From Minisyncoccia bacterium (GTDB lineage Bacteria; Patescibacteriota; Minisyncoccia; Phycocordibacterales; Zambryskibacteraceae), in contig JBAQOA010000027.1 in NCBI GenBank assembly GCA_049304335.1, forward strand, positions 1-41,259: a stretch of DNA of 41,259 nucleotides, given 5' to 3'. The position numbers were made by a program, and so were the translations under genes. Position 1 is the stretch's first letter; the number at the start of each line of letters is the position of its first letter. A model generated the notes under the pieces. That model worked only from the letters and a program-made list of their open reading frames with translations. It had not been told where the DNA came from and ran no database searches. Positions 4,534-39,979 of this stretch are shown in pieces.

Positions 4534-4540
4534 AAGCAAA

Positions 4541-4563
4541 GCCTCAGCTTGTTAAGCTGAGGC
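4541..4563. terminator. bidirectional stem-loop between pth and the convergent GC-rich ORF
   Basis: GCCTCAGCTT-GTT-AAGCTGAGGC, a perfect 10-bp stem. An A/T-rich run follows on the minus-strand side. The stop codon of ORF 4552..5037 lies in the loop. Confidence 0.6.
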
Positions 4564-5037
4564 TTGTAGTGCTTCGGTGGCACACCGAGCGTCATAGAAT
4601 GCATTCCTGCTGATTTCTTCAATGCAGGCTATGCACTCAAAATGGCGACGCACCACGTCTGCAAAGATGGCGACATCTGAGGACGGGATGGTGAAGTGCC
4701 TGCCGATGAACGACTGTGGCAGACTGTCGAGAAAGAGCCTATTGAGCTCTTTGGGACGTGTCCAAATCGACACCATACTGTCTTTCGTCGTCATGTGCTT
4801 GATGAGGGAAAAGGCATCAGAGATAGCCTTAACCTTCTGACCGATGACAGGGAAGTCGTCAGGGTCAGCCCACGGCGAGATAAGCGCGTATCGGTGAAAG
4901 CTTTGGTGCAGTTGCCTCTCATCTACGATACCTCCCACCAACATCCTGAAATTTGGATGCCGATTGAGGTATGCAAGTCCTGCGATGTAGAAGAGCACGC
5001 TTTGCACACCTCTGTCCGTACTACCGCATCCAATCAT
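4552..5037 (-). CDS. hypothetical cytosolic protein encoded in a GC-rich islet
   Basis: 161-aa ORF. A GGAG Shine-Dalgarno lies 7 nt upstream of the ATG (CACTGGAGAACCTATG on the minus strand). The terminator hairpin sits at the 3' end. No signal peptide and no motif I recognise. Confidence 0.5.
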   Translation of the reverse strand: MIGCGSTDRGVQSVLFYIAGLAYLNRHPNFRMLVGGIVDERQLHQSFHRYALISPWADPDDFPVIGQKVKAISDAFSLIKHMTTKDSMVSIWTRPKELNRLFLDSLPQSFIGRHFTIPSSDVAIFADVVRRHFECIACIEEISRNAFYDARCATEALQASA

Positions 5038-5137
5038 AGGTTCTCCAGTGAGCTTCTGCAGAGAATCTACATTTTTTTAGAATTTAAGCAACTAAAAAAC
5101 TGCACCCATCTCGAGTACAGTTTTTTAGTTTAATTAC

Positions 5138-6214
5138 TTAAGCCTCAATAAAGCTAAGTGTCATCTTCTGTTCTTTTGGATCAAAAGTTGAAATCTTAAA
5201 GTTATAAACTTTTCCAAGTCCAAGCTTTTCTCGAAGTTTTTCTTCAGTTCCAAATTCAGAAACATGCACGAGACCCGCAACACCTTCCTCGATAGAAGCC
5301 AAGGCACCGTGCTTGTTAAATTTGATTACAACACCCTTTACAGAATCACCCTTTTTGTATTTCTTTTCAGCGTCAGACCAAGGGTTTGGTTTTAATGCTT
5401 TGATAGAAAGAGAAATCTTTCCGTCTTTTATTTCAATTACTTTTACCTTTACACGATCACCAACTTTGTAAACAGAGCGAGGATTCTCAACTAATGACCA
5501 ATCCATTTCTGAAATGTGTACTAATCCTTCTAATCCTTCCTGAAGTTTTACAAAGATTCCGAAATCTACTGCGCCAGTAACTTCACCTAGTACTTCATCG
5601 CCGACAGAATATTTCTCTACCATGTCGCTCTTTGTTTTCTCGTTTTCGCCCTTTTCAGAGAAAATGAGTTTCCCTTCCTTAGGCATTGCTGCAATCATTG
5701 TGACTATAAAGTGTTCACCAACGAATTTTCTAAGTTCATCCAAGATTTTATCTTTATCACCATCTGCTACACGTGGGTAATGGTCCTGCTTTAGTTGTGA
5801 TGCAGGTAGAAAGCCTTGTATTCCTTGCCATTGCAAGATGAGACCGCCTTTGTTTGCGTCAACAACGGCCAAATCAAATTGCTTCTTTTCTTTAATAGCT
5901 TCATCTGCTTCTGCCCAGATTTGAGCCTGTCTTGCTTCCTTAAGAGAAATTTCAATGTAACCTTCAGGGTTATCAAAGCCCACAACTTTTCCTGCAATTG
6001 TGTCGCCAACATTTAGATTCTTAATAATGTCGCGTGCTTGCAAAAATTCTCTTCCGAAAATTATTCCAGTACCAAAAGGGGATAGGTCAATATAAACCGC
6101 CGCCTTTTCGATGCCGATTACTTTTCCTTCAATTATGTCTTCAGCAATTGGAGGAACAGGAGAATCAGCAACAATTTTATGCATTGCTGAATCTGCTTTT
6201 AATTCCTTATTCAT
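5138..6214 (-). CDS. rpsA: 30S ribosomal protein S1 (four S1/OB repeats)
   Basis: 358 aa with four repeats of the S1 motif pattern (G..V.G.V......G.FV.L..G..GLVHISE). Confidence 0.85.
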   Translation of the reverse strand: MNKELKADSAMHKIVADSPVPPIAEDIIEGKVIGIEKAAVYIDLSPFGTGIIFGREFLQARDIIKNLNVGDTIAGKVVGFDNPEGYIEISLKEARQAQIWAEADEAIKEKKQFDLAVVDANKGGLILQWQGIQGFLPASQLKQDHYPRVADGDKDKILDELRKFVGEHFIVTMIAAMPKEGKLIFSEKGENEKTKSDMVEKYSVGDEVLGEVTGAVDFGIFVKLQEGLEGLVHISEMDWSLVENPRSVYKVGDRVKVKVIEIKDGKISLSIKALKPNPWSDAEKKYKKGDSVKGVVIKFNKHGALASIEEGVAGLVHVSEFGTEEKLREKLGLGKVYNFKISTFDPKEQKMTLSFIEA

Positions 6215-6228
6215 TTTTGAATCCCACG

Positions 6229-6332
6229 ATCCCCCGTGAGATAAGCATTTTTAACTCTTATCTAAACTCTGATGTGAGATAGTATTTAAATTTTTTGGAA
6301 CACTACTTAAATTTACTATCTCACGGGGGGAT
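6229..6332 (-). promoter_or_regulatory. structured rpsA 5' leader with mutually exclusive pairings
   Basis: The segment TTAAATTTACTATCTCACGGGGGG (6308-6330) can pair with either of two partners. One is GTGAGATAGTATTTAA (6274-6289). The other is ATCCCCCGTGAGATA (6229-6243), which abuts the G-rich tract just upstream of the rpsA ATG. Confidence 0.45.
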
Positions 6333-6401
6333 TACGCGAGTTATTAATGGTTATTTCTATTAATCACCCGTCTTTCGAAGGGCACGGGAATAGTACAAGA
6401 G

Positions 6402-6436
6402 AAATGGCCGACCCGCAAGTGTGGGGTCGGCCATTT
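6402..6436 (-). terminator. intrinsic terminator of ORF 6451..6726
   Basis: AAATGGCCGACCC-GCAAGTGT-GGGGTCGGCCATTT. On the minus strand a T-rich run (TTTCTCTT) follows. Confidence 0.7.
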
Positions 6437-6450
6437 GTTTCTCACAAGAG

Positions 6451-6726
6451 TTAGTGCGGGTTCTTTCGCCTAAACTCCCGCTGGAACTCCACGCGTCTAA
6501 CCGTGGCGACGGAGTCCACATACTTCTTGAACTTCTTGCAGGTGGAATCCGGGACCGCCTCGCCGCGTTCCCACAGCGTGGGGATTGCAGTGAGGCCGAC
6601 TGATGTCGGCTCGACATCGCAGGGCGCCATTGTGCCAGCGGAGTGCTTGTTCTGCACTTCGTCGTACTTGAGCGCGCCAAATGTTATGGCGATGAGGAGA
6701 AACAGTATCAGCGTAACTACGCGCAC
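6451..6726 (-). CDS. small secreted or membrane-anchored protein (GC-rich islet)
   Basis: 91 aa. GTG start with AGGAG 8 nt upstream. N-terminal hydrophobic segment VVTLILFLLIAITFGAL. Two Cys residues. A terminator follows directly. Confidence 0.55.
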   Translation of the reverse strand: MRVVTLILFLLIAITFGALKYDEVQNKHSAGTMAPCDVEPTSVGLTAIPTLWERGEAVPDSTCKKFKKYVDSVATVRRVEFQREFRRKNPH

Positions 6727-6820
6727 GAAAAACTCCTATGTGAAGAGGGAAGGTACAGCAGACAATATTATAACAAATATTCTCGGGAATAGCAAATACG
6801 GAATTTTTATATAAAAGAAG

Positions 6821-6846
6821 AGCCCCTCGCTGCAAAGCGAGGGGCT
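6821..6846 (-). terminator. intrinsic terminator of ORF 6941..7504
   Basis: AGCCCCTCGC-TGCAAA-GCGAGGGGCT, followed on the minus strand by CTTCTTTTATAT. Confidence 0.7.
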
Positions 6847-6940
6847 AGGCTTCTAAGCCTTCTGTGTTTTTCTACCTTACACCGTCTCGACCGGTGTGGT
6901 AGTGAAAATGTTCACAATCCATCCTGTGAGGCCGGGCGGC

Positions 6941-7504
6941 CTAGAGTCGAGAGTAGAACCTCGGCGCGACCGGCGAAATTCCCGCAGCGTTGTCCGTCAT
7001 CGAGAAGACGTCGGAACATCGCAGGTAGAACGCGTTCTCCGTAGGTGTCGCGTTCCGATTCGCAGGGCTGGCCGCCACCTCACGGGGCGGCCGGTCGAGC
7101 GGCATGATGTTGCTGTAGCTTTTCCCCGAAAGGGGCCCCCAGGTCGATGCCGTGGCGTACGTGGTCGACGAGCAGCAAAGGTTGGTCTGCTGCTTGGCGG
7201 GCGGGCCGGTGTCGTAGAACGGCGTGGAGCCGTTCTCGGCGACAGGGGCTTCGACCGTCACGTCCAGCGTGCCGAGCGTGTTCTCAGCCTGGGCGGGCTT
7301 CTTGGCTGCCCAGCTGACGTCAACCGTCGTGGCGCTCGTGAGCGCGAAGCTCACATCGTACGGCGCAGCGAGGGGCGACTTCTGGCTGACCTGCTTGACC
7401 TTCGCTTCGGCCGCGTTGGCCGTGGGCGGTGCCATGGCGCCGGTCATCGCGATGGCGAAAATCGCCACCATGATGGGGTGCATGGTCTTGCGGGGCATCA
7501 TCAT
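6941..7504 (-). CDS. secreted protein (GC-rich islet)
   Basis: 187 aa. GAGAGG Shine-Dalgarno 6 nt upstream. Sec-type signal peptide MHPIMVAIFAIAMTGAMAPPTANA|AE. A beta-rich mature part follows (SFALTSATTVDVSWAA). It was chosen over the overlapping GC-rich frames because of the signal peptide, SD and terminator. Confidence 0.6.
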   Translation of the reverse strand: MMMPRKTMHPIMVAIFAIAMTGAMAPPTANAAEAKVKQVSQKSPLAAPYDVSFALTSATTVDVSWAAKKPAQAENTLGTLDVTVEAPVAENGSTPFYDTGPPAKQQTNLCCSSTTYATASTWGPLSGKSYSNIMPLDRPPREVAASPANRNATPTENAFYLRCSDVFSMTDNAAGISPVAPRFYSRL

Positions 7505-7673
7505 GCGGGCCTCTCGGCTCAGGTGATGGTGTTGGTAAAGTACTATCTGCCCTCAGGCAGGTAGTACCCACCGAGGAAAGGACATTATAGGAAATGGTTT
7601 TTTACTTGTCAATAGTCAGAATTTGTGGTGAAAAAAGTGGCTAAAATAGGCCATATTATGCTATAATAGGAGT

Positions 7674-11554: not shown

Positions 11555-12874
11555 ATGCAAATGAGCAAATTTCAGCTCGCTGTTCTTATTATATTTGGCC
11601 TCTGTATTGTTGGCGGTATTATGGCTTTTTCCGTATATAGAGGCTCGGGTGCTACCACCACAGACTTATCTATTTGGGGCACAGTTCCCACAGATTCTTG
11701 GAACAGTTGGTATGGCACAAGTCCAATTTACCAAGATCGCCTTTACAGAATTACATACACGTATATTCCTGAGGCAAATTTTGATCAAGAATTAGTCAAC
11801 GCAATTGCCGAGGGTAGGGGGCCGGATATTGTTTTTACATTTCATGACCGCATATTGAAAAACCAGGCAAAATTATTGCCTATACCTTTTTCGTCTTTTT
11901 CGCTTAGAGATTATTTGAGTACCTTTATTGATGGCTCTACTGTACTTACAAGTAGCACTGGCGAATGGGGAGTACCATTAGTGGTAGATCCACTTGTGCT
12001 TTATTTCAACAAGGATATTTTTGTAAATTATTCTCTTGTTCAGGCTCCACAAATTTGGGAGCAGATGTATTCGCTTGCTCAAGGAATGACTATCAGAGAC
12101 AAAAACACTGGAAATATTATTCAAGCCACTATTCCACTTGGTGCCTACAACAATGTTTTACATGCAAAAGAAATTCTTTCAACCCTAATTATGCAAGCTG
12201 GTGGTGCGTTGGTTCAGGATTCAAACAATTACATTAGCGCAACACTTAATGAGTCATTTGGTTTGTCATACTCTCCCGCCAATGCGGCCTTACTATTTTT
12301 CACGGAGTTTTCAAATCCCGCGAAAATTTTCTATACATGGAACCGTTCACTTCCGGATTCACTTACCGAATTTGCGGCGGGCGATTCCGCAATGTTTATT
12401 GGTTTTGCATCTGATTATCAAAAAATTAGAGATAAAAACTCAAATCTGGCATTCGATGTTTCGTTCTTACCACAATCATCAACAGCAAAAAGAGCAATAA
12501 CTTACGGCAGGATGTTATCTCTCGCTGTAACTAAGGGTAGTACTAAATCAACGCCAGCATTTGGGGCAATTTTCGAAATGATGTCTGCACAATCAGTTCA
12601 GAACTTGGCAAATGTGCTTAGACTTCCTCCTGTAAGGCGTGATTTACTCAAAACCAGACCATCAGACCCATTTATAGCGGTGTTTTATGACTCGGCAATT
12701 CAGTCAGTAGCATGGAAGGATCCAGACACAGAAAAAACAAACATAATTTTTCAGAATATGATTGATTCAGTGATTTCTGGGAGAGCGCGTGTAGAGGATG
12801 CCACAAGAAATGCGCATGATGAACTTAAGAAGCTTATAGATAGCCTCACTCCGCAATTACCAGCGACACAGTAA
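11555..12874 (+). CDS. extracellular solute-binding protein (family-1 ABC substrate-binding-like), membrane-anchored
   Basis: 439 aa. N-terminal TM anchor (LAVLIIFGLCIVGGIMAF). The size and block pattern resemble sugar-type SBPs. No permease or ATPase gene is adjacent. Confidence 0.6.
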   Translation: MQMSKFQLAVLIIFGLCIVGGIMAFSVYRGSGATTTDLSIWGTVPTDSWNSWYGTSPIYQDRLYRITYTYIPEANFDQELVNAIAEGRGPDIVFTFHDRILKNQAKLLPIPFSSFSLRDYLSTFIDGSTVLTSSTGEWGVPLVVDPLVLYFNKDIFVNYSLVQAPQIWEQMYSLAQGMTIRDKNTGNIIQATIPLGAYNNVLHAKEILSTLIMQAGGALVQDSNNYISATLNESFGLSYSPANAALLFFTEFSNPAKIFYTWNRSLPDSLTEFAAGDSAMFIGFASDYQKIRDKNSNLAFDVSFLPQSSTAKRAITYGRMLSLAVTKGSTKSTPAFGAIFEMMSAQSVQNLANVLRLPPVRRDLLKTRPSDPFIAVFYDSAIQSVAWKDPDTEKTNIIFQNMIDSVISGRARVEDATRNAHDELKKLIDSLTPQLPATQ

Positions 12875-12888: not shown

Positions 12889-13335
12889 ATGCGAAGAATT
12901 TTAGATAAAAAAATAAAAGCAAGATTAGAGATTTATTTTTTAATACTCACACTAGCTCTAATAGCCCTGCCTTTTTTTGCTAGTGCCCAAGTTAGTGACC
13001 CAGCTAATAGTGGAAGCCGGTTTTGGAAACCCCTGATTATTTGTGGAGAAATAAATAATCCATGTAATTTCGGAAAATTAGTAGAACTAACAAATAATAT
13101 AATCACTGACCTAGTAGTTATTTCTTTCCCATTGGCAGCCTTGTCTTTTGCTTGGGCTGGTTTTCTTATATTGACCTCTGCAGGCAATATGGCAAAAGTA
13201 AGCCAAGGTAAGGCAATCCTACTAAAGGTCGGTACCGGATTTGTGATAATACTGTCTGCTTTTCTAGTTGTATCATTTATAATAAGTACATTCGTAAATC
13301 AAAACAGCATAATAAATATTATTCAAACGAGATGA
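12889..13335 (+). CDS. TrbC/VirB2-like pilin family protein, paralogue 1
   Basis: 148 aa. Signal peptide ending FFASA|Q. A Cys pair (CGEINNPC). Two C-terminal TM helices separated by a short charged loop (TSAGNMAKVSQGK). Confidence 0.55.
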   Translation: MRRILDKKIKARLEIYFLILTLALIALPFFASAQVSDPANSGSRFWKPLIICGEINNPCNFGKLVELTNNIITDLVVISFPLAALSFAWAGFLILTSAGNMAKVSQGKAILLKVGTGFVIILSAFLVVSFIISTFVNQNSIINIIQTR

Positions 13336-13796
13336 TAAACGCTAAATTAAAAAACCGATTAGCAACAGCAGGACTATTAGTAGTTTTATTTCTCGCTTTT
13401 ATTATTCCGGTAGCAAGCGTTCTTGCTCAGCAGGGCAATAACACGACCGGAGGAACAACCGGTAATAACACAACTGGTGGAACAACAGGCAATACAGGAG
13501 GAGATACTCAGTCAACGGCTTTGAATTTCAAGATTGAGAATCCATTTAAGTTGGGCAATTCACTTAATGGAGTAATAGACGCAGTGCTAAACAATGCGGT
13601 TATTCCTTTGGGCGGCATTGTTGTGATTATAATGATTATTTATTCCGGATTTTTATTTGTTACTGCAAGAGGAGACGAAAGTCAATTATCAACAGCCAAA
13701 AAAACTCTTTTGTATGCGGCAATTGGAGCAGCGATACTTCTGGGCGCCGTAGCAATAGAAAAAGCCATAGAGGGCACTATCAATGCACTTAGATAA
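13332..13796 (+). CDS. TrbC/VirB2-like pilin family protein, paralogue 2
   Basis: 154 aa. ATGA overlap with paralogue 1. Signal peptide ending VLA|QQ. A GNNTTGGTT low-complexity repeat. Two TM helices separated by TARGDESQLSTAKK. Confidence 0.55.
   Translation: MINAKLKNRLATAGLLVVLFLAFIIPVASVLAQQGNNTTGGTTGNNTTGGTTGNTGGDTQSTALNFKIENPFKLGNSLNGVIDAVLNNAVIPLGGIVVIIMIIYSGFLFVTARGDESQLSTAKKTLLYAAIGAAILLGAVAIEKAIEGTINALR
13434..13500 (+). repeat. in-frame 27-nt tandem repeat (about 2.5 units) inside pilin paralogue 2
   Basis: GGCAATAACACGACCGGAGGAACAACC / GGTAATAACACAACTGGTGGAACAACA / GGCAATACAGGAGG. This encodes GNNTTGGTT twice plus a partial unit. Confidence 0.8.
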
Positions 13797-14448
13797 AAAA
13801 TACAATTTTTTTGCAATAAGTTTTGTCTTACTAATTTTGAGTATGTTTGTCGTGCAAACTGTATTTGCGCAGCTTCCATTCGGTAGCCCAATTCAATCAG
13901 GAGGTACAGCAACTTCAGGCGGTGTAATTAAAACTGGAGATACTACTCACGCTGGTGGAAGCACAAATTCAGGCGGCTCAGTACAGACTGGTGGTTATGT
14001 TCCTGGTTATGGTGGCCTTATTTACTCTGGCGGAAAAATAATTGCAGGTGGTACAACAACTAAAGCAAGCGCACTTTCCAACCCGAGCGCACTCTCTAAT
14101 CCAACAGGAACAATTGGTGCAGGGGGTTTGTCGCCGTCGATTATTACTCCTTCAGTAAGTCAAACAAACAACGGGACACCACAAAATCTGAAGCAGTTTA
14201 TCAGTTTGATGATTGGAATTATTCAACTGTTGATTCCAGCGATAGGACTGATGTCTATTTGGATATTCTTTAAGGGCTTGGCAGGTTTTATTTTGCATTC
14301 AGGTGATGTGACAGCAGTAGCAGAGGGAAAACAGCTAATGTTGTGGGGAATAATTGCCATTTTTGTGATGGTTTCTGTGTACGGCCTAATAAGTATTCTT
14401 TATGGCACTTTGTTTGGTGGTGTCATAAAACTGCCATTACTACCATAA
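13783..14448 (+). CDS. TrbC/VirB2-like pilin family protein, paralogue 3, with a GG-hexapeptide repeat region
   Basis: 221 aa. Signal peptide ending VFA|Q. A run of GGxxxx units (GGTATS, GGSTNS, GGSVQT, GGLIYS, GGKIIA). Duplicated SALSNP. Two C-terminal TM helices around HSGDVTAVAEGKQ. Confidence 0.55.
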   Translation: MHLDKKYNFFAISFVLLILSMFVVQTVFAQLPFGSPIQSGGTATSGGVIKTGDTTHAGGSTNSGGSVQTGGYVPGYGGLIYSGGKIIAGGTTTKASALSNPSALSNPTGTIGAGGLSPSIITPSVSQTNNGTPQNLKQFISLMIGIIQLLIPAIGLMSIWIFFKGLAGFILHSGDVTAVAEGKQLMLWGIIAIFVMVSVYGLISILYGTLFGGVIKLPLLP

Positions 14449-14456
14449 TTACAAAT

Positions 14457-14825
14457 ATGGCTTATAAAAATATAAAAATAATTTTGTTGCTAGTGCTACT
14501 CGTGCTTTCACCGTTACAAATATATGCAGCAACATCGAGTTCGGTGCCAGTATGTTCGAATACGAATGTCCAAGGAATAATAGCCTGTGTAATTGGTTTG
14601 TTTACGAGATTGATTCCTATTACTGCGAGTTTTGCGTTACTTTTCTTTATGTGGGGTGTATCCAAAATACTCAGGGCACAGGGAGATACAGGAAAAATAG
14701 AAGAGGGTAGAAGGACAGCTTTTTGGGGCATAATTGCACTCTTCATCATTATTTCTTTGGGGGGCATAGTGGTTTTTTTACAGCAGGATTTAATAGGCGG
14801 ACTAAAAAATACAGTTTTTCCTTGA
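14457..14825 (+). CDS. TrbC/VirB2-like pilin family protein, paralogue 4
   Basis: The ATG at 14457 gives MAYKNIKIILLLVLLVLSPLQIYA|A. Two TM helices are separated by RAQGDTGKIEEGRR. The longer track ORF from 14343 overlaps paralogue 3 and is not needed. Confidence 0.55.
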   Translation: MAYKNIKIILLLVLLVLSPLQIYAATSSSVPVCSNTNVQGIIACVIGLFTRLIPITASFALLFFMWGVSKILRAQGDTGKIEEGRRTAFWGIIALFIIISLGGIVVFLQQDLIGGLKNTVFP

Positions 14826-14923
14826 TATCCCCAAACACTGTAAGCAGTAAATTATGTGGGTTATAATAGAATTCGAACCTATAAATTGAGAGGTTTTAAG
14901 AATTAATAAAAGTTTCAAAAAGT

Positions 14924-15289: not shown

Positions 15290-15311
15290 TTTAATTTAGG
15301 AATTTCTATTT

Positions 15312-15572: not shown

Positions 15573-15590
15573 AAATAAAAAATTAAATCG

Positions 15591-15621
15591 AAAAGGCCTC
15601 GACAATTCGTCGAGGCCTTTT
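15591..15621. terminator. bidirectional intrinsic terminator
   Basis: AAAAGGCCTCGAC-AATTC-GTCGAGGCCTTTT, with an A-tract and a T-tract on either side. It lies between the convergent pilin array and ORF 15631..16305. Confidence 0.75.
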
Positions 15622-28902: not shown

Positions 28903-28915
28903 CAACCATAAACAT

Positions 28916-29296: not shown

Positions 29297-29361
29297 TGCT
29301 CCGTTAGAGACTGTTTCTGGTGCTATTTATACTTTTATAAATTAAAAAAGCAATTAATTTG

Positions 29362-29526: not shown

Positions 29527-30447
29527 ATGCCTTTTTATAACAACGCTGTTTTTTGGATAGAACTAGAAAAAATAAAGCCAAATCCATTTCAGCCACGAAG
29601 AGAATTTTCAGAAGATGAACTAAGAGCTTTGGCCGACTCTATTCGCCAATATGGAGTTTTGCAGGCGCTTGTTGTAACTCGTAAAGAAATTCAAAAAGAG
29701 GACGGTGGACTTGGCGTTGAATATGAACTCATTGCCGGTGAAAGGCGTTTGCGCGCTGCGCGCTTGGCTGGATTAAGTCAGGTACCCGTTTTAATAAAAA
29801 CAGGTGATGAGTCTGATCTCATGAAGCTTGAGTTGGCAATCATTGAAAACATTCAACGCGAGGATTTGAATGCAGTAGATCGTGCCCGAGCATTCGATAG
29901 GCTTGCTAGAGAATTCGGTTTCAAACATTTAGATATTGCTAAAAAAGTTGGCAAGAGCCGTGAATATGTCACAAACACCATGCGCCTCCTCACACTGCCA
30001 GAAGATATTTTGATGGCACTTTCAGAGGGAAAAATTACAGAAGGACACACGAGGCCTTTGATGATGCTTATTGATAGACCAGAGGAAAGAGATACATTGT
30101 TTAGAGAAATTATTTTGAAAAAAATGAATGTGAGAGAGGCAGAAAGGATTGCGCGTTCCATTGCTTTTGAAAGAGCACGCAAAAAAGACTTAATGAAAGA
30201 CCCAGCACTTGCAGATATGGAAAGTAAACTCCAAGAGGCTCTTGGTACACGTGTTTACATAGAGCGACGTGAAAAGGGCGGGAAAATTTTAATTGATTTC
30301 TTTGATTATGATGACTTGGAAGATATCGTTCAGCTATTAGATAAAAAGAGGGCAGAACAGGCAAATACTTTAAATTCTCAAATCAAAAACGAGGATGCCG
30401 TTAGCAACGAAGACGGCGTTTACTCAGTAGATAATTTTAGTTTGTAA
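29527..30447 (+). CDS. parB: chromosome partitioning protein ParB/Spo0J
   Basis: 306 aa. ParB box LIAGERRLRAARLAGL and the HTH region. Confidence 0.9.
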   Translation: MPFYNNAVFWIELEKIKPNPFQPRREFSEDELRALADSIRQYGVLQALVVTRKEIQKEDGGLGVEYELIAGERRLRAARLAGLSQVPVLIKTGDESDLMKLELAIIENIQREDLNAVDRARAFDRLAREFGFKHLDIAKKVGKSREYVTNTMRLLTLPEDILMALSEGKITEGHTRPLMMLIDRPEERDTLFREIILKKMNVREAERIARSIAFERARKKDLMKDPALADMESKLQEALGTRVYIERREKGGKILIDFFDYDDLEDIVQLLDKKRAEQANTLNSQIKNEDAVSNEDGVYSVDNFSL

Positions 30448-30460
30448 TTATTTAAACGAA

Positions 30461-30487
30461 AGCGCCCCGACGGTATGTCAGGGCGCT
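30461..30487. terminator. stem-loop between convergent parB and ORF 30504..30791
   Basis: AGCGCCC-(13-nt loop)-GGGCGCT, with A/T-rich sequence on the minus-strand downstream side. Confidence 0.5.
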
Positions 30488-30503
30488 TGTGCGACGTTGG
30501 TGC

Positions 30504-30791
30504 TTAGAAGAAGGGAATCAGCTTGCTGTTGCGCTTGTCGATTATGACTGCGCCACAGGCACAACTGCGAAAGTGAGTGACATCGCAGATGAATCCGCCA
30601 CGGACGACCTCGTTCATTATGAGGTAATCCTTTTTCGTGTAGTGATGCTGGTGCTTGGCAGCCTTCACCACTCGGCCGGTGATCTTCTTGCAGGCCTTTC
30701 GCTTGGTTGTGCGATGCTTCACATGCTTTGGCTTGCCCCTTGCGGATACAAGCCTCTGGGCTTTCAGAACTCGACTGAGCGTCAGCGCCAT
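30504..30791 (-). CDS. small highly basic protein (GC-rich islet)
   Basis: 95 aa. AGGAGG lies 6 nt upstream of the ATG. The N-terminal half is Lys/Arg/His-rich. The C-terminal half has a Cys-x-Cys element (FRSCACG). No family recognised. Confidence 0.5.
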   Translation of the reverse strand: MALTLSRVLKAQRLVSARGKPKHVKHRTTKRKACKKITGRVVKAAKHQHHYTKKDYLIMNEVVRGGFICDVTHFRSCACGAVIIDKRNSKLIPFF

Positions 30792-30823
30792 ACGAGCCTC
30801 CTGTGTGTTCTTAAGGAAATCTA

Positions 30824-32995
30824 TTACTTATCTTTCTTTTTTGCAAATCTACCGCGCCCAACTTTTTTGGGTTCTTTCAAAATTTCGGTTGCTCTTTCAA
30901 GTGAGATTTCATATGGACTATCAGTCTTCAGTGATCTGAAATCTTTTTGGTGAACAATGTATGGACCAAAACGTCCAACACTAGCTGTTATTGGTTCGCC
31001 AGTTTCTGGATAATTTCCAAGTACTCTTGGTAGGGCTAAATATTTCAGTGCGTCTTCAATAGAAACAGTCGTAACGTCTTTATCTTTAGGAATTGATGCT
31101 CTTTTTGGTTTTGTTTTTTTACCTTTAACATCTTCACCGACTTGTACGTATGGGCCAAAACGTCCAGTTTTCACAAAAATTGGTAGTCCAGTTTCTGGGT
31201 CTTCACCGATTGGTTTATCTTTTTGAATTTCTTTACCTTCTATTGTTAGTGCGCCATCACAGTTGGGGAAACGTGAGCAAGAAAGAAATCTTCCACCACG
31301 AGAAAGCTTGATAATCATAGAAGAGCCACACTTCGGACAAATGTGATGTGCGTCCGCATCTCCGAGCGTCGTTATTTTTGCTGTTGTAGATTTTTCCTCA
31401 ACATCTTTTGAAAAAGGTTTATAAAAATCAGTAAGAGTTTTTTTATATTGACGAGTACCATCAGCGATTTCATCCAATTCATTTTCCATTTCAGCGGTAA
31501 AGGTGTCGGAAATATATTTTGCAAAGTTATCTTCCAAAAAGGTCGAAACTACTTCACCTGTGTCTGTGGGTTTTAGTGAACGTGCTTCTTTTGTTACATA
31601 TTCACGATCTAAAAGAGTTTTAATAATAGATGCGTATGTAGAAGGGCGACCAATGCCTCTTTTTTCTAGTTCCTTAACTAACCCTGCTTCTGAATATCTA
31701 GGTGGGGGAGTCGTTTCCTTCCTTTCAGATTCAATGGAAACAGTTTTTAGTTTTTCGTCTTTGTTTACGTGTGGCAAAATTACATCTTCGCCTTTTGCAT
31801 TTGGATCTGCTAAAAGCCATCCGTCATTAATTACTCGCGTCCCAACTGCTTTTAAGTCTGGTAAATCTTTGGCACCTACGATGATTGTGGTGCGCATTGT
31901 TTCTGCATCGTTCATTTGTGATGCCACAGTACGCGCCCAAATGAGTTTATATAATTTTTTCTCATCTTCAGCGATTCCTGCAGATTTCTTTTTAAAATCA
32001 GTTGGGCGGATTGCTTCGTGTGCTTCTTGTGCATTTTTGGACTTTGTCTTAAAAGTTCTAAACTGATGCATATTTGCGCCATATTCTTTTTCTACTGCAC
32101 CCTTTATCATTCCAAGTGCCTGCGAGCCCAAGTTTGTAGAATCGGTACGCATATAAGTGATAAGACCTTTCTCGTATAGCTTTTGAGCGATACGCATTGT
32201 GTTTGATGGAGAAAAACCTAGTCGTGTGGAAGCTGCTTGTTGCAGTGTCGATGTGGTAAATGGTGCACGTGGGGCGCGCATTACTTTTGTTTCGTCTACT
32301 GAAGACACACTCCAGTCCGCTTTTTTTCCATTAGCAACTATTTTTTCTACTTCCTTCTCATCTAAAATTTCATTTGATTCACACTCAAACTGTTCGTTCT
32401 TACCGTTCTTAAAATTTCCATGGATTATAAAAAAAGGATGTGAAATAAATTTCTTAATTTCTCTTTCGCGCTCTACTAATATGCGAAGTGCTGGGGACTG
32501 TACTCGTCCTGCAGATAGGCCGTAGCGCACCTTCTTCCAGATAAGCCCCGATAAGTCATAACCCACCAAGCGGTCCAAAACTCTTCTTGCTTCTTGGGCA
32601 ATCTTTAATTTCTCATCAATTTCACGAGGGTGCTTTATCGCTTCTAGGACGGCGTCTTTAGTAATTTCATGAAAAACAATTCTTTTTGGATTTAAAAGCT
32701 TTGTAACTTCTGCGATGTGCCAGGCGATTGCTTCTCCTTCACGGTCAGGGTCAGTTGCTAAAAGCACTTCGTCGGCTTTCTTTGCGAGCTTTTTTATGTC
32801 TTCAATAATATGTTCCTTTCCTTTGGAAATTTCGTAATGGGGAATAAACCCCCCCTCTATGTCGATGGCCTTTTTGTTTGATTTAGGAAGATCTCTTACG
32901 TGGCCGACAGATGCGACTACTCGATAATCTTCTCCCAAATATTTTTCTATTGTCTTCGCTTTTGACGGAGACTCAACAATTACTAATTTTGTCAT
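30824..32995 (-). CDS. topA: DNA topoisomerase I
   Basis: 723 aa. Toprim start LVIVESPSKAKTIEKYLG, active-site Tyr region ITYMRTDS, and C-terminal Cys4 zinc ribbon CPKCGS...CSRFPNC. Confidence 0.95.
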   Translation of the reverse strand: MTKLVIVESPSKAKTIEKYLGEDYRVVASVGHVRDLPKSNKKAIDIEGGFIPHYEISKGKEHIIEDIKKLAKKADEVLLATDPDREGEAIAWHIAEVTKLLNPKRIVFHEITKDAVLEAIKHPREIDEKLKIAQEARRVLDRLVGYDLSGLIWKKVRYGLSAGRVQSPALRILVEREREIKKFISHPFFIIHGNFKNGKNEQFECESNEILDEKEVEKIVANGKKADWSVSSVDETKVMRAPRAPFTTSTLQQAASTRLGFSPSNTMRIAQKLYEKGLITYMRTDSTNLGSQALGMIKGAVEKEYGANMHQFRTFKTKSKNAQEAHEAIRPTDFKKKSAGIAEDEKKLYKLIWARTVASQMNDAETMRTTIIVGAKDLPDLKAVGTRVINDGWLLADPNAKGEDVILPHVNKDEKLKTVSIESERKETTPPPRYSEAGLVKELEKRGIGRPSTYASIIKTLLDREYVTKEARSLKPTDTGEVVSTFLEDNFAKYISDTFTAEMENELDEIADGTRQYKKTLTDFYKPFSKDVEEKSTTAKITTLGDADAHHICPKCGSSMIIKLSRGGRFLSCSRFPNCDGALTIEGKEIQKDKPIGEDPETGLPIFVKTGRFGPYVQVGEDVKGKKTKPKRASIPKDKDVTTVSIEDALKYLALPRVLGNYPETGEPITASVGRFGPYIVHQKDFRSLKTDSPYEISLERATEILKEPKKVGRGRFAKKKDK

Positions 32996-34073: not shown

Positions 34074-34100
34074 CGCAGTTAGAATGTTCATGGAGTAGAA

Positions 34101-34601
34101 ATGACCTCTCATCTCGAAGTAGAACGAAAGTTCGTCGTTGAGAACTTTCACGCTGGCATGATTCCCGCGGACGCAGAAATGTCTGAAATCACTCAGGTAT
34201 ATCTGGTGAGTGATAACAGGGCAGTGGAGAAAAGGGTTCGCGCGGAGCTTGGTGCTCGGGTACGGCGCTATACCCATACCACCAAAGAGGATTCAGGGGT
34301 GGCAGGCATTCGGCGCGAGAGCGAAAAGGAAATCACATTGCCTGATTTTCAGACCTTCCTTTCTTTGCGTGATGTTCACACTCGCGCAATCGTAAAGCGT
34401 CGGTACAAGTTTCGCTCCGGCAAGCACGTTCTCGAGCTCGACGTCTACGAGTTGCCAATTTCGAATCTGGTTGTACTGGAAGTCGAGGTTGGGGCGCTCA
34501 ATGAGCAGGTCGAGTTTCCCGAAGGTTGGGTACTTCGTGAAGTCACCGGTGACTCCATGTATTCGAACCGTTCAATTGCCCTCGGCTCGGTGGGGCCGTA
34601 G
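34101..34601 (+). CDS. CYTH-domain protein (triphosphate tunnel metalloenzyme; GC-rich islet)
   Basis: 166 aa. The N-terminal ExExK signature is LEVERKFVV, and the alternating charged beta-strand pattern continues through the protein. Confidence 0.75.
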   Translation: MTSHLEVERKFVVENFHAGMIPADAEMSEITQVYLVSDNRAVEKRVRAELGARVRRYTHTTKEDSGVAGIRRESEKEITLPDFQTFLSLRDVHTRAIVKRRYKFRSGKHVLELDVYELPISNLVVLEVEVGALNEQVEFPEGWVLREVTGDSMYSNRSIALGSVGP

Positions 34602-34607
34602 TGGCAT

Positions 34608-34646
34608 GTGGCCGTCCTGCACTTAGGACGGCCACTTTCGTTTTTA
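34608..34646 (+). terminator. intrinsic terminator of the CYTH gene
   Basis: GTGGCCGTCCT-GCACTT-AGGACGGCCAC followed by TTTCGTTTTT. Confidence 0.8.
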
Positions 34647-34664
34647 TTTGGTAAACTAGTTGTT

Positions 34665-35976: not shown

Positions 35977-36795
35977 ATGAAAAAAGATAAGTTTTCTATT
36001 CTTAAATCTAAGAAGATTGAAGCCCGTAAGCGCCAATATCGTTTGCGCATCGGTTTAGTAGCAATAACTATTTTAGTTGTGGCACTTGTTTTGCCACCTC
36101 TTGTTGCTCGGATACCATTACTAGAAATAAGGACTGTAAATGTAGAAGGCACCAAGACCATTGAATCAAGCGCAATTGTAGATTTTGTTAATGCAAAACT
36201 TTCAGAGACATATTTAAAAGTTTTTCCGAGAGACACATATATAACGGCCGGTAAGGGGAGACTAAAGGAAGGACTGTTAAATGAATACCCAGCGATTTTA
36301 GACATTAAGTTAAGTTTTCATACTCCTCATATATTGCTCATAGAAATAACAGAAAGAGAGCCTTCAGTTTTATGGTGTGCAGGTAGTGATAATAAAAATT
36401 GTTATTTTGCCGACTCGCAGGGATTCATTTATGAGAGAGCGCCAGAATTTTCGTCTCCCGTTTATGTAGTTTTTAGGAATGGTATTAAAAATGAAAATCC
36501 TATGAAGCAGAGTATTTCTGGTAAAACTGTTTTTGAGCGCATAAATGTATTAGAAAAGAATTTTTCAGTATTAGGATTGAAAGTAAAAGAAATTTCTTTC
36601 CAGCCAAATGAAGTTGTTAATTTTTATTTGAATCACGGCGCGCTTTATATTTCATTGAGAGGGGATGATAAGCTCACTTTTGATAATTTGAGTTCGCTTT
36701 TATTAAATCCAAAAACAGATTTGCGTGACGGAGTAGGCGGAATAAAAAATTCATATATTGATTTAAGGTTCGGAAATAAGATTTTTTACAAATAA
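35977..36795 (+). CDS. ftsQ: FtsQ/DivIB-like cell division protein (POTRA)
   Basis: 272 aa. Basic N-terminus, one TM segment, then the POTRA-like segment IRTVNVEGTKTIESSAIVDFV. Confidence 0.6.
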   Translation: MKKDKFSILKSKKIEARKRQYRLRIGLVAITILVVALVLPPLVARIPLLEIRTVNVEGTKTIESSAIVDFVNAKLSETYLKVFPRDTYITAGKGRLKEGLLNEYPAILDIKLSFHTPHILLIEITEREPSVLWCAGSDNKNCYFADSQGFIYERAPEFSSPVYVVFRNGIKNENPMKQSISGKTVFERINVLEKNFSVLGLKVKEISFQPNEVVNFYLNHGALYISLRGDDKLTFDNLSSLLLNPKTDLRDGVGGIKNSYIDLRFGNKIFYK

Positions 36796-36837
36796 TTAAT
36801 TATTGACAAAATATAATTACAAAGTAAAGTAAATATA

Positions 36838-37141
36838 GAACAGCACAAAAGACCGACTGGGTAGACTCCGCGGAATTCCATCCGCTCGAGGGGACTCAGT
36901 ACAGAATGAATCTAGGTTGGCAGTGGGCCACAGAGAGCGCTAGCCCGGCTAAACATCAAACGCCGCGCAAACCCTCCACCATTTCCGGGGACAGTCCTTG
37001 GACCCCCGTCAGAGATGCAGAACGCCCAACTATCTCAACCAATTTTCGTGGGAAGTAGATTTTTACTTCCTTTGTGGAGCGTCAAAACTCCCGGTCGAAC
37101 CATCGCGCTCACCCTGATTAAAGGGTGAGCGTTTTGTTTTT
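36838..37141 (+). ncRNA. unassigned structured RNA candidate, unit 1 of the ORF-free GC-rich locus
   Basis: A possible promoter lies upstream: TTGACA at 36803-36808, 16 nt, then TAAAGT. The GC-rich body contains hairpins such as GGAAGTA-GATTTT-TACTTCC. It ends in the terminator CGCTCACCCT-GATTAA-AGGGTGAGCG-TTTTGTTTTT (37106-37141). Confidence 0.4.
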
Positions 37142-37184
37142 CATAAATTTTGTAAATTTGACAATTTTATATATTTTGTGTTTG

Positions 37185-37863
37185 AACTTTTTAGGAGCTT
37201 GACTGTGGATAACTGTTTCTGTAATGTCTCTGCCAGACCGTTCTTAGACAAGTTGATTGGTTCATCTGGCAAAGAACAAACGGCAGATAAACCGCGGGGC
37301 AACCCACGGAAAATCCACCGCAAGTTCGTAGAGCCCGCAAGAGCTCTGCATCTGGTCGCCGTTCACGGCTACACCCAACTGTTACGACTAGCATACGGGT
37401 TAGCTAGTCGAGACATAACAGGCCGCAGTCCTCACGAGGGATTATCGGCAAGGGAAAATCCAAGTTTCGCTATCATGCGTCGGCAAGATAGTTTCGTACG
37501 GACTTCAAAGTCCATACGAACATCCCGCCTATCCACATAGGCGACGATGAAAACAAGGTACCAGAAAAGCAAGAACCAATGAAGACGGCCAGACCTCCAA
37601 AGTCCAGCCGATCCAAGGAAGTAAGCGAGGATGAAATCTCGCTGAAAACCTCGGAGTTGCGGATCGTCAATCCGCTCCTTCACGCACGAAGTTTCCGAAA
37701 GGAAACCCGTTGAACCTCGCTTCGGCAAGGTCCATCGCCTCTCCAGAGAGGTAAGTGCACAGCTTGTCACCCTTCTAGGGCGTATAGGTTCTGATGACCG
37801 AAAGGCCATAAGAATCCTCGCGCCCCCAAACGGGCGTCCTTCTACACGAAGGGCGCCCGTTTT
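37185..37863 (+). ncRNA. unassigned large structured RNA candidate, unit 2
   Basis: About 680 nt without a credible ORF. Tetraloop-capped hairpins include CCGCGGG-GCAA-CCCACGG (37292-37309) and GTTTCC-GAAA-GGAAAC (37691-37706). There are also an 8-bp stem at 37385-37410 and a 12-bp stem at 37493-37520. It ends in the terminator at 37828-37863. The 5' end is uncertain. Confidence 0.35.
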
Positions 37864-37904
37864 CACGTATTAGGTTGAAGTATTTTGTTTTATAAGTACT
37901 ATCC

Positions 37905-38135
37905 ACTGCAGAAAGGATGCACATTCACAGGTATGCAGCGGTCCCTCCCCGTGGCTACGTCCGTAAGGGCGGAAGCTATTTCAGTGATTCTTGGGCGAGA
38001 TTGGACTCTCCAATGACTGTGTTCGTGACAAGTGCTTAGTCGTGTTTGCACTTGTTCTAGTCGCGCTTGCATGCCACGACTGGACATCCGAAGTTTTGGG
38101 CGCGCATCCGTACAGGGTGCGCGCCCAATTTTTTT
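37905..38135 (+). ncRNA. unassigned structured RNA candidate, unit 3
   Basis: A possible promoter lies upstream: TTGAAG at 37875-80, 16 nt, then TACTAT. The body has nested stems such as AGTCGTG...CACGACT. It ends in a strong terminator, TTGGGCGCGCA-(11 nt)-TGCGCGCCCAA-TTTTTTT (38096-38135). Confidence 0.35.
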
Positions 38136-38153
38136 GATATAGTCTTAAACTTA

Positions 38154-39122
38154 ATGAAAGAAAATTTTTGGGATAAATTAAAAAAGCCCATCTTTGTTTT
38201 AGCGCCAATGGCCGACGTCACTGACGTTTCTTTTCGCAGGGTAATTGCAAAATATGGCAAACCAGATGTTATGTGGACCGAGTTTGTGTCTGCAGATGGT
38301 TTGGTGCGAGCTACTCCAGAAGGAAAGAAAAAACTTTTAAAAGATTTGGAATATTCAGAAGGTGAGAGACCAATTGTGGCGCAATTATTTTCTGCCAATC
38401 CAGAATATATGTTTGAGGCTGCAAAGTTGGTCAAAGAATTAGGATTTGATGGCTTGGATATCAATATGGGATGTCCAGACAAAGGTGTAGAAAAGCAGGG
38501 AGCAGGAGCTGCACTAATGAAAAATTCAAAATTAGCACGAGAAATAATTCGTTCTGCAAAAAATGGTTTTGATGGACCAGTTTCAGTGAAGACCCGTATT
38601 GGCTATAACAAAGATGAGCTGGATGTATGGCTCCCAGAGATTTTGAAAGAAGGTGTTTCGTTGGTCACAATACATGCACGCACAAGAAAAGAAATGTCCG
38701 ATGTCCCAGCTAATTGGGAAAGAGTAAAAAGAGCAGTTGAAATTAGAAATGAATATGCGCCAGAGACTTTAATTTTCGGAAATGGAGATGTTGCCGGTGT
38801 TGATGATGCTAGGAAAAAATGCGAGGAATTTGGTTGTGATGGCGTAATGCTCGGGCGCGCAATTTTTGGCAACCCTTGGCTTTTTATGAAAAATCCACCA
38901 ACTGATGGACCAACAACTGAAGAAAAACTTAAAGTACTCGTTGAACACAGCAAACTTTATGATGAACTGATTACAGGATTTAAAAGTTTTTCGGTAATGA
39001 AAAAACATTTTAAAGCGTACGTAAATGGTTTTGATGGTGCTGTAGATTTAAGAAAAAAATTAATGGAAACAAATAATTCGAGCGAAGTTGAAATGATGGT
39101 AAATGATTTTCTAAAAAAATAG
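38154..39122 (+). CDS. tRNA-dihydrouridine synthase
   Basis: The ATG at 38154 lies after the terminator. VLAPMADVTDVSFRRV, QLFSANPE, INMGCP and IHARTR are Dus family landmarks. Confidence 0.88.
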   Translation: MKENFWDKLKKPIFVLAPMADVTDVSFRRVIAKYGKPDVMWTEFVSADGLVRATPEGKKKLLKDLEYSEGERPIVAQLFSANPEYMFEAAKLVKELGFDGLDINMGCPDKGVEKQGAGAALMKNSKLAREIIRSAKNGFDGPVSVKTRIGYNKDELDVWLPEILKEGVSLVTIHARTRKEMSDVPANWERVKRAVEIRNEYAPETLIFGNGDVAGVDDARKKCEEFGCDGVMLGRAIFGNPWLFMKNPPTDGPTTEEKLKVLVEHSKLYDELITGFKSFSVMKKHFKAYVNGFDGAVDLRKKLMETNNSSEVEMMVNDFLKK

Positions 39123-39221
39123 ACCAACAAAATTACTCTTTACTTTTTATTTTTTATATTGTACTCTTGTAAAAGAAGTAAAAGTACACGCTCCAACCAC
39201 GGCCCCATTTAGGAGGGGACA

Positions 39222-39896
39222 ATGCGCACCACAATGTTGGTTCTCGTGACGGCACTCCTTCTGGGGTGCAGGAAAGACGAGACGCTCGTGAGTCTGTATG
39301 ACTCTGGGCTTCCCACGTCGCCACAGGCGCCCGTTGGTGTCATGCAGGTCTTCATGAATCCGCACGCGGATTCGCTGAAGCTCGGCGACACCACCACTTT
39401 CGTTGCCCGTGCAATCCCTACTCGGGAAAGCGCAGGTTTCAATCGAAAGATCTTCTGGAGGTCGGCCGACACGACCATTGTGTCGCTGACTCAGGTGAGC
39501 GACACAAGCGTCCGCGCTACCGGCAAGAAGGTAGGCAGTGCCCAGATTCGTGGGTACGCCTCTGCCGATTCCAGCAAGTTTGCCACGGCGTCTCTCACGG
39601 TCTATACCGTGGCGCCGTCGCACAGCTCGCCGGTACAGCTGGTGAAGTTCGATGGCGATTCGGTCATCGCCGTCAAGGTGAATGAGAGTAGGCAGATGCC
39701 AGCTCCGCGCTGTGTGATGGTGAACCCAAGCGCGCCATGCGAGCTACTCTGGCGCTCGACCGACACCCTGACGCTTTCGGTGAATGCTACCGGAAGAATC
39801 ACGGGCAAGAAGGTAGGAAATGCGCAGGTGTATGTGCGGGTCAAGGCCGACACTACGTTCGTCGCGGTCTACCCGAAGCCTGTGCAGGTGAAGTAG
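39222..39896 (+). CDS. lipoprotein with two Big_2-like Ig domains (GC-rich islet)
   Basis: AGGAGG lies before the ATG. The lipobox is LLLGC. There are two repeats of the pattern W-R-S-x-D-T...V...ATG-K-K-VG-x-AQ. Confidence 0.7.
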   Translation: MRTTMLVLVTALLLGCRKDETLVSLYDSGLPTSPQAPVGVMQVFMNPHADSLKLGDTTTFVARAIPTRESAGFNRKIFWRSADTTIVSLTQVSDTSVRATGKKVGSAQIRGYASADSSKFATASLTVYTVAPSHSSPVQLVKFDGDSVIAVKVNESRQMPAPRCVMVNPSAPCELLWRSTDTLTLSVNATGRITGKKVGNAQVYVRVKADTTFVAVYPKPVQVK

Positions 39897-39923
39897 AGCG
39901 GAGGAGCGGAGAGGAGCAAAGCA

Positions 39924-39953
39924 GGGGCGCACGACAATTTCGTCGTGCGCCCC
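39924..39953 (+). terminator. intrinsic terminator of the lipoprotein gene
   Basis: GGGGCGCACGAC-AATTTC-GTCGTGCGCCCC followed by ATTTCGTT. Confidence 0.7.
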
Positions 39954-39979
39954 ATTTCGTTATATAATCAGACTCAAAT

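Follow-up and report, generated by a model that had tools for sequence, protein, structure and literature searches.

G+C-rich islets in an A+T-rich Paceibacteria contig: captured cassettes or a conserved expression class?

Short stretches of atypical base composition are routinely read as the product of recent horizontal gene transfer (HGT). Whether this reading is justified is the question raised by contig JBAQOA010000027.1 (assembly GCA_049304335.1), whose 41,259 nucleotides, all analysed here, are referred to as the window. Judging from TopA, ClpB and other core genes used as markers, this 41-kb contig belongs to the Paceibacteria, as a Parcubacteria/Zambryskibacteria-like member of the candidate phyla radiation (CPR). 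Its A+T-rich core genes are interspersed with ten short G+C-rich islets, which an earlier sequence-only reading had interpreted as single-gene cassettes captured repeatedly from a high-GC donor, speculatively the host. The explanation that we favour, without giving it better than an even chance, is composite: an old G+C-rich gene class, RNA-like units and a few recent imports, with the high G+C held by selection on the transcripts.

We kept the ten intervals of the earlier reading as the islets and took the remaining A+T-rich genes and windows as the backbone. The compositional mosaic is real. Backbone G+C is 0.387 (mean 0.391, standard deviation 0.029, maximum 0.48 in non-overlapping 300-nt windows), whereas the islets range from 0.486 to 0.595, at z = 3.2 to 7.0 against those windows. 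G+C at third codon positions (GC3) is 0.56-0.86 in the islet open reading frames (ORFs), which show clear codon periodicity, and 0.24-0.37 in backbone genes. The G+C-normalised dinucleotide signature is also shifted: delta* between pooled islets and backbone is 91 (null 29 +/- 10, maximum 66), and that of the coding islets 149. An eleventh G+C-rich, strongly folded patch, missing from the earlier list, lies at 24872-25055. Amino-acid usage in the islets is only weakly of the G+C type, so the shift is mainly synonymous. Third positions are strand-symmetric and without skew, and transcription-strand mutational asymmetry was rejected as a cause on that ground. The enrichment is confined to transcribed parts: a TTGCTA-N17-TATAAT promoter between the two genes of islet 2 is A+T-rich. 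The products described before were all recovered, nine proteins and the ORF-free units, and a G+C-rich terminator hairpin with a 10-15-bp stem, announced for most islets, ends every one except 30455-30800. The islets are not all single-gene units, however, as islet 2 holds two genes and islet 9 three transcription-unit-like RNAs.

Sharp composition steps in a metagenome assembly could also arise by chimeric assembly, or by binning that joins pieces of a G+C-rich organism's genome to a CPR contig, a concern already raised by the sequence-only reading. Against this, the independent Logan assembly of SRR28062879 (L001), which covers the window from ~4.8 to 9.5 kb, reproduces islet 2 with both flanks and both junctions. 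G+C-rich genes also occupy matching junctions in at least five independent metagenome-assembled genomes (MAGs) or contigs from other samples, which excludes chimerism for practical purposes, and the islets sit exactly in intergenic spacers, with host-type promoters. We therefore give such an artefact almost no credence.

The islets were compared with four sets of relatives, in which the window gene order is kept throughout: the closest, CAYPNA (L094, L105 and L106; S1 95% and FtsA 93% identical to the window proteins); sister A, comprising CAYIKP and Hainich groundwater contigs (L002, L091, L107, L108); sister B, comprising CAYGCY and a 157-kb ENA contig (L003, L087, L088, L099); and L089, with a backbone of 48% G+C. 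For the dprA-serS and parB-topA spacers, ~70 Paceibacteria loci were compared. The outcome was split. Islets 2, 3, 9 and 10 recur at the same positions in sister genomes, equally G+C-rich, and islets 1 and 5 give a mixed picture; islets 6 and 8 are absent from the relatives and islet 7 takes the place of another gene. The idea of repeated cassette capture is thus supported for two or three of the ten islets and not for the strongest ones, nor fully for islets 1 and 5. The proteins of the conserved islets are clade-restricted and only 21-51% identical where their flanks are 60-95% identical; islet proteins diverge 2-4 times faster than these flanks.

Islet 3 (15575-16410, minus strand) is the clearest case. 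It encodes a 224-aa envelope protein with three transmembrane (TM) segments (coding sequence (CDS) 15631-16305, terminator 15589-15623), whose start codon is backed by homologues and whose gene is convergent to a T4SS_pilin gene cluster. Its GC3 is 0.79-0.85 in the window. Orthologues occupy the matching place in L094, L095, L097 and L087, and GC3 in the five genomes is 0.64-0.81 versus 0.21-0.38 for the flanks. HMMER, run exhaustively against 1.84 billion representatives, found just three full-length family members elsewhere (51, 36 and 27% identity), all syntenic and all in A+T-rich backbones. The pairwise identities of the family (23-49%) fall in the same order as those of the neighbouring pilins (62-84%), which points to co-inheritance. 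The pilin-like cluster itself (12889-15572) follows a solute-binding protein and comprises five to six small membrane proteins, with signs of internal paralogy in a 63-nt repeat family at 14326, 14706 and 15146; it is kept in all relatives, always with the islet 3 gene next to it.

Islets 2 and 10 behave similarly. Islet 2 (6345-7575, minus strand) contains two monocistronic genes, one for a 187-aa secreted protein (6941-7504, minus strand, terminator 6821-6846, GC3 0.86) and one for a 91-aa signal-anchored Cys protein (6451-6726, minus strand, GTG start, terminator 6402-6436, GC3 0.75). At the MBL-S1 junction of sister B are found a 142-aa secreted protein (GC3 0.83) with a signal peptide homologous to that of islet 2, an anchored Cys protein of 93 aa (GC3 0.68) and a G+C-rich unit of 660 nt without ORFs; the small anchored protein also recurs in CAYPNA. 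Islet 10 (39185-39960, plus strand) encodes a 224-aa Big_2 lipoprotein (39222-39896, Pfam Big_2 2.4e-6, GC3 0.73) with an internally duplicated Ig-like domain, an AGGAGG ribosome-binding site and a terminator at 39924-39953. Its homologues at the dus-dnaX junction of L002 and L003 are 37-40% identical, with GC3 of 0.57-0.67, and a JGI scan added one further locus only. A Bacillus-like SRP RNA upstream of dnaX was considered for this islet and rejected: the region is a periodic CDS without Rfam match. Judged by these comparisons, islets 2, 3 and 10 are vertically inherited, clade-restricted and very fast-evolving small genes, mostly for exported or membrane proteins.

Islets 1, 5 and 7 probably belong to the same vertically inherited class. 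Islet 1 (4534-5045, minus strand; G+C 0.51, GC3 0.59) encodes a 161-aa cytosolic ORFan (CDS 4552-5037) with a GGAG site and a 12-bp terminator hairpin at 4539-4565. It is missing from sisters A and B, but an orthologue 51% identical, with GC3 of 0.60, lies at the S1-pth junction of the closest relative (L105, 2048-2545), where the flanks are 82-95% identical. The 161-aa protein had no match in Pfam, PDB (sequence search), PHROG or PADLOC, and its single-sequence AlphaFold model was unusable (pLDDT 38). Islet 5 (26885-27135, minus strand) abuts tRNA-Trp and encodes a 65-aa 2-TM peptide (26934-27131, GGAGG site, terminator 26905-26929); the miaA/tRNA-Trp junction of sister A carries a counterpart, a 76-aa 2-TM peptide led by a Shine-Dalgarno (SD) site, which is missing in sister B. 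Islet 7 (30455-30800, minus strand) encodes a 95-aa, very basic ORFan (30504-30791, AGGAGG site, net charge +19, GC3 0.69). It fills the parB-topA spacer (30447-30824); the sisters, like the large majority of the ~70 loci, have there a relA/spoT gene of ~1.5 kb (HD_4-RelA_SpoT-TGS), which is missing from the window.

How long the conserved islets have kept their composition can be judged from four-fold degenerate sites. Between the window and L087/L097, backbone four-fold sites are 31-38% identical, where ~29% would be expected by chance, so that they are saturated; between the window and CAYPNA they are 43-54% identical. Nevertheless, G+C at four-fold sites (GC4) in islet 3 is 0.88-0.97 in the window and 0.71-0.87 in L087/L097: despite backbone saturation, the orthologues, spanning 0.71-0.97, show no amelioration. 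Moreover, the conserved islets are richer in G+C than the lineage-specific ones. Retention of G+C across saturated sites, together with the greatest richness in the conserved islets, argues that it is an equilibrium property and not the unerased signature of an import. Rapid evolution alone is not its source either, since fast-evolving neighbours are A+T-rich: backbone envelope genes only 35-45% identical to those of sister B keep a GC3 of 0.24-0.31. Relaxed, fast evolution exposing a G+C mutation bias was accordingly rejected, the equally fast envelope genes, the GIY-YIG gene and the aminoglycoside-phosphotransferase-like (APH) gene being A+T-rich.

The islets also differ from the backbone in their translation signals. 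SD sites, which the sequence-only reading had reported for most islets, precede 8/9 islet genes and 0/28 backbone genes of the window; in the sisters the figures are 17/19 for G+C-rich genes and 5/87 for backbone genes. Of 35 outlier ORFs in a set of 53 Paceibacteria loci that are A+T-rich, 57% had an SD site, versus 7% of 641 typical ORFs, the latter value being below that of internal-codon controls (9-13%). A -10 box lies 4-14 nt before the start codon in 10/26 backbone genes (~40%, the leaderless type) and in 0/9 islet genes, which suggests that leaderless mRNAs are widespread among the core genes of the window. From these sequence features, islets 2, 3 and 10, probably also 1, 5 and 7, together with the ORF-free islets 4 and 9, appear as a distinct expression class within an A+T-rich, SD-less and partly leaderless genome. 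Elsewhere in the window, the leader of the ribosomal protein S1 gene (6232-6332) contains a long inverted repeat, TCCCCCGTGAGATA ... TATCTCACGGGGGGA, possibly an autoregulatory element.

A further trait of the class is excess RNA folding. With dinucleotide-preserving shuffles, z was about -3 for 14 islet CDSs and about 0 for backbone CDSs; ordinary topA CDSs of G+C-rich Paceibacteria gave 0.03 +/- 0.97. With synonymous-codon shuffles, z was -2.42 for G+C-rich genes (n = 20) and -0.14 for backbone genes (n = 12; p = 1e-4), with values of -3.3, -2.6 and -4.8 for islets 1, 7 and 10. The difference held for 143 ORFs taken without selection from seven loci (-2.28 versus -0.29, p = 1.8e-8), where GC3 and codon-shuffle z were correlated (Spearman rho -0.52).

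Islets 4 and 9 extend the class to elements that, on their sequence, are non-coding and highly folded RNA-like transcription units. In both, every frame is interrupted by stops and codon periodicity is absent. Islet 9 (36838-38135) comprises three units on the plus strand, each with a predicted sigma-70-like promoter and a strong terminator: U1 (36836-37140, ~300 nt) runs from a TTGACA-N16-TAAAGT promoter to a terminator at 37105-37132, with a z of -4.35 for predicted minimum free energy (MFE); U2 (37190-37870, ~650 nt) from a TTGACT-N17-TGTAAT promoter to a terminator at ~37828-37862 (z -7.28); and U3 (37895-38136, ~240 nt) ends in a 14-bp terminator at 38096-38128, just 5' of the dus promoter (z -4.07). 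Islet 9 thus shows the generic marks of structured non-coding RNA (ncRNA): absence of coding potential, predicted promoters and terminators of its own, and folding z of -4.1 to -7.3. No Rfam family matched at E < 1 within 36700-38250, and scans of the window and of 11 related loci, at gathering as well as permissive thresholds, yielded only tRNAs, eight of them in the window. The ftsQ-dus junctions of L002 and L003 contain ORF-free G+C-rich units of 550-620 nt as counterparts of U2. In these few and divergent sequences, what can be aligned is the promoter with ~40 nt at the 5' end, plus a weakly matching stretch on the 3' side, and nhmmer and blastn found almost no similarity between the RNA-like units of the window and those of its sisters. 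The units are nearly unalignable even between sister species and accordingly offer no covariation support. In more distant Paceibacteria, the same junction holds unrelated small cargo.

Islet 4 (25575-25860) is likewise ORF-free, with a ~170-nt folded unit on the plus strand (25575-25745, terminator 25706-25732, MFE z -3.8). The unit that follows rpmG showed no conservation when aligned with the sister loci. On the 3' side of the folded unit, at 25757-25795, lies a conserved hairpin motif, GAATCGGTCAC-ATAATTTTCT-loop-GAAAATTT-CGTGACC, which has no Rfam family match. The motif recurs in distant Paceibacteria, in tandem in L051 (13905-13988 and 14064-14147), beside tRNA-Trp in L032 (18557-18635, with one compensatory change in the inner stem) and in L037 (3020-3065).

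Composition, conservation of place and composition, co-divergence with the flanks, backbone saturation, the SD dichotomy and excess folding are direct observations; from them we infer selection on RNA stability as the cause of the high G+C. In the mechanism that we propose, each member of the class would be a monocistronic unit, driven by a sigma-70-type promoter of its own and closed by a long G+C-rich terminator, and its body would fold more tightly than composition or protein sequence requires, the coding units having a strong-SD leader. Selection for thermodynamic stability of the transcript would hold G+C, above all at synonymous sites, against an A+T mutation bias. SD-dependent initiation would be the necessary companion of such mRNAs: structured messages could not use the unstructured or leaderless route, which would couple high G+C to SD sites. 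Selection of this kind would also limit G+C to transcribed parts, make the composition persist in orthologues and place ncRNAs in the same class.

Several points weigh against this explanation. RNAalifold found no shared fold among five islet 3 orthologues (consensus -36 kcal/mol, covariation term +1.96), so that selection, if any, would favour generic stability, an unusual target. Folding is equally good on both strands, and the self-complementarity could therefore be of DNA-level or mutational origin. The folding statistics come from predicted MFE with 20-40 shuffles per gene, and the gene starts in the sisters are the output of automatic callers. Finally, foreign DNA, too, is classically recognised by SD sites, G+C-richness, a deviating dinucleotide signature and ORFan status, and founding events from an unsampled SD-using donor (phage, plasmid or host) are possible.

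The symmetry of folding bears directly on a different explanation, in which a locus-specific mutation or repair process drives both hypervariability and G+C. This could be GC-biased gene conversion (gBGC), or template-switching at quasi-palindromes, which would create hairpins and explain self-complementarity on both strands. The rapid divergence of the islet proteins, the lack of conserved folds between orthologues and a 5-fold enrichment of perfect hairpins in the islets would all fit. However, third positions carry no mutational skew, G+C enrichment stops at promoters within an islet, nearby fast-evolving envelope genes are A+T-rich, there are no silent cassettes or repeats as a source of conversion, and the SD sites would be left unexplained. 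The known effects of gBGC in bacteria are moreover small. We consider such a process distinctly improbable.

Capture has to be weighed first on islets 6 and 8, which we judge, from their distribution and folding, to be ordinary, lineage-specific and recent acquisitions: they lack the folding features and are missing from the relatives. Islet 6 (28878-29300, minus strand) encodes an orphan receiver domain of 126 aa (28916-29296, terminator 28878-28902; Pfam Response_reg 1.3e-7) without an SD site at functional spacing, and its gene is missing in three sister lineages (L087, L089, L091). Islet 8 (34075-34650, plus strand) encodes a 166-aa CYTH-domain protein (34101-34601, GGAG site, terminator 34608-34635; Pfam CYTH 7e-4, PHROG 6660 1e-17), whose best homologue is 41% identical. 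It interrupts the dprA-serS spacer, which is A+T-rich and 36-140 nt long in nearly all of the ~70 Paceibacteria loci, with a few of up to ~380 nt. Full-length CYTH homologues, 33-39% identical, occur in many phages; a viral-contig scan for CYTH gave no match, and the contexts of distant homologues, in Bacteroidota-like contigs, were uninformative. In both islets GC3 is 0.58-0.59 and codon-shuffle z close to zero, at -0.1 (-0.13) for the receiver and -0.4 for CYTH, indicating no excess folding.

Could all islets have arrived in this way, each a cassette from a high-GC, SD-using donor (host, phage or plasmid), whether recently or by recurrent capture at hot-spot junctions? Such an origin would account for the deviating G+C, GC3 and dinucleotide signature, as well as for the SD sites and strong intrinsic terminators, which are not seen in the backbone. 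The CYTH, receiver and islet 7 genes are confined to the window, and islet 1 is common to the closest relative alone; CYTH has homologues in phages; CAYPNA carries extra G+C-rich genes between g1850 and S21; the same junctions bear unrelated cargo in more distant Paceibacteria; and HGT in Patescibacteria is on record, at up to 13% of genome length (PMC12455944). On the other hand, orthologues hold their place and GC3 over a synonymous divergence that has reached saturation, the islet 3 family diverges in step with its flanks, and the oldest islets are the most G+C-rich, the opposite of amelioration. Neither ordinary G+C-rich genes nor the two clear imports show the excess mRNA folding, and amino-acid usage is only weakly of the G+C type. 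The G+C-rich Paceibacteria were rejected as donors because their typical genes, too, are without SD sites. The donor search suggested by the sequence-only reading returned no donor homologues in 1.8-5.8 billion proteins: the 187-aa protein of islet 2 has no detectable homologue among 5.8 billion clusters, for this protein and those of islets 3 and 10 none was found closer in a donor lineage than in the relatives, and viral-contig scans for the islet 3 and Big_2 proteins gave no match. We thus found no evidence for a single high-GC donor, or for the host as source, and hold capture of all islets to be unlikely.

Nor is there a sign of a mobility mechanism. In agreement with the earlier reading, the islets share no repeats in the window and their ORFs include no recombinase; integrase domains were also absent from the islet ORFs, from the unannotated neighbouring ORFs scanned and from the called genes of the syntenic sister loci. 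No att repeats were found, and direct repeats of tRNA 3' ends are absent around islets 3, 5 and 6, only tRNA-Tyr, outside the listed islets, having such copies. The 41-kb window contains no reverse transcriptase and no template/variable repeat pair of the kind found in diversity-generating retroelements. PADLOC and NCBIfam scans gave nothing useful.

The exceptional tRNA-Tyr locus (24480-25055) includes the eleventh patch. A duplicate of the 5'-most ~35 nt of the tRNA, with an extra D-loop hairpin, lies at 24480-24540, and a GIY-YIG nuclease ORF (Pfam 4e-15) directly follows this partial copy and extends to 24782. The intact tRNA-Tyr (24788-24871) is followed by a 160-nt G+C-rich, very strongly folded insert (z -6.3) and, at 25032-25049, by 18 nt that repeat the 3' end of the tRNA. 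In sister B the tRNA-Tyr is plain, and in L002 a GIY-YIG ORF abuts tRNA-Gln. The locus resembles one rebuilt around an insertion, with a GIY-YIG element of the homing type restoring the tRNA that it targets.

The relatives have additional members of the G+C-rich class at junctions that are empty in the window, which shows that the class turns over between species. They include a 660-nt ORF-free folded unit in sister B (L099, 4530-5190), genes for a His_Phos_1 protein and a 245-aa exported protein in the same locus (12043-12519 and 14996-15733), and a G+C-rich pair of genes of 197 and 354 aa between g1850 and rpsU (S21) in CAYPNA (L105, 5616-7273). Not all variable genes are G+C-rich: the 315-aa APH-family phosphotransferase (25862-26809), between the rpmG region and tRNA-Trp, is lineage-specific yet A+T-rich (G+C 0.35), and sister B has a DUF4440 gene there.

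Each of the closest precedents for these islets covers one aspect only. Atypical genes make up 8-9% of prokaryotic genomes on average (PMC6028130). Acquired genes and micro-islands resemble the islets in their atypical composition, ORFan products, intergenic insertion and gain and loss, and islets 6 and 8 fit this model fully. The strongest islets differ in being orthologous, syntenic and compositionally stable over saturated divergence, with no donor, mobility gene or att site and with G+C that does not decay with age; ordinary G+C-rich genes, in turn, lack the folding excess of the islet mRNAs. In A+T-rich genomes, G+C-rich intergenic regions (GC-IGRs) are known to encode structured ncRNAs (PMC6429828, PMC8632094, PMC11109978). 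Similarly, islets 4 and 9, like the units of the sisters, are intergenic, G+C-rich, ORF-free, strongly folded and bounded by promoter and terminator. Unlike those ncRNAs, islets 4 and 9 have no Rfam match, units of 300-650 nt are large for bacterial small RNAs, and the compositional and folding signature here extends to protein-coding genes.

For the translation signals the nearest precedent is the Bacteroidia, which are SD-blind through sequestration of the anti-SD sequence by bS21, bS18 and bS6 and in which rpsU is autoregulated via a strong SD (PMC7797042, PMC9976891, PMC13000453). There, as in the window, nearly all genes lack an SD and a small, defined subset has a strong one. However, the subset is here a G+C-rich and structured one that takes up ~10-15% of the sequence; rpsU of the window (1559-1804) has no SD site; and many backbone genes of the window look leaderless instead of having A-rich leaders.

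The vls antigenic-variation locus of the Lyme Borrelia is a G+C-rich surface-lipoprotein locus in an A+T-rich genome. Like the islets, it has hypervariable surface-lipoprotein genes and a high G+C kept between species despite sequence divergence, but the window is without silent cassette arrays, G-runs, GC skew and repeats, and the islets are many, dispersed and in part non-coding. Integron cassettes, lastly, resemble the islets in being single-gene units whose 3' end forms a hairpin, and in the variable cargo carried at one fixed place. The islets are instead dispersed, each unit with its own promoter and T-tailed terminator, and have neither mutual sequence similarity, a shared 3' element nor an integrase; their hairpins precede T-runs, which makes them terminators and not integron-type 3' ends.

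A broader proposal may also be made, which we put forward tentatively and rate as well short of an even chance: that two expression regimes exist side by side in this clade, the composition of the second being selected and its translation gated separately. The core regime would consist of A+T-rich, SD-less and often leaderless genes. The second, with a share of ~10-20% of the sequence where loci are most affected, would consist of G+C-rich, SD-led, hyper-structured monocistronic mRNAs for hypervariable envelope proteins, and would also include large unclassified structured RNAs. Separate gating could act, for example, through anti-SD availability or mRNA unfolding, perhaps tied to host attachment.

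What do the islets mean for the biology of these bacteria? Atypical composition is here a stable, heritable trait of orthologues over more than one substitution per synonymous site, so that composition-based HGT calls in CPR genomes may be badly inflated. As mutation is universally biased towards A+T (PMC2936535), the islets provide a natural test case of synonymous-site selection against this bias. The combination of high G+C, strong SD sites and excess folding in an SD-less lineage points to separately controlled envelope proteins and RNAs, the likeliest mediators of the episymbiotic lifestyle. It also supplies a simple sequence rule for finding these molecules, and several large structured RNA candidates without known family have been flagged. 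All together, the main body of the mosaic would be a variant of compositional heterogeneity that bears both on the inference of HGT and on gene expression in the CPR.

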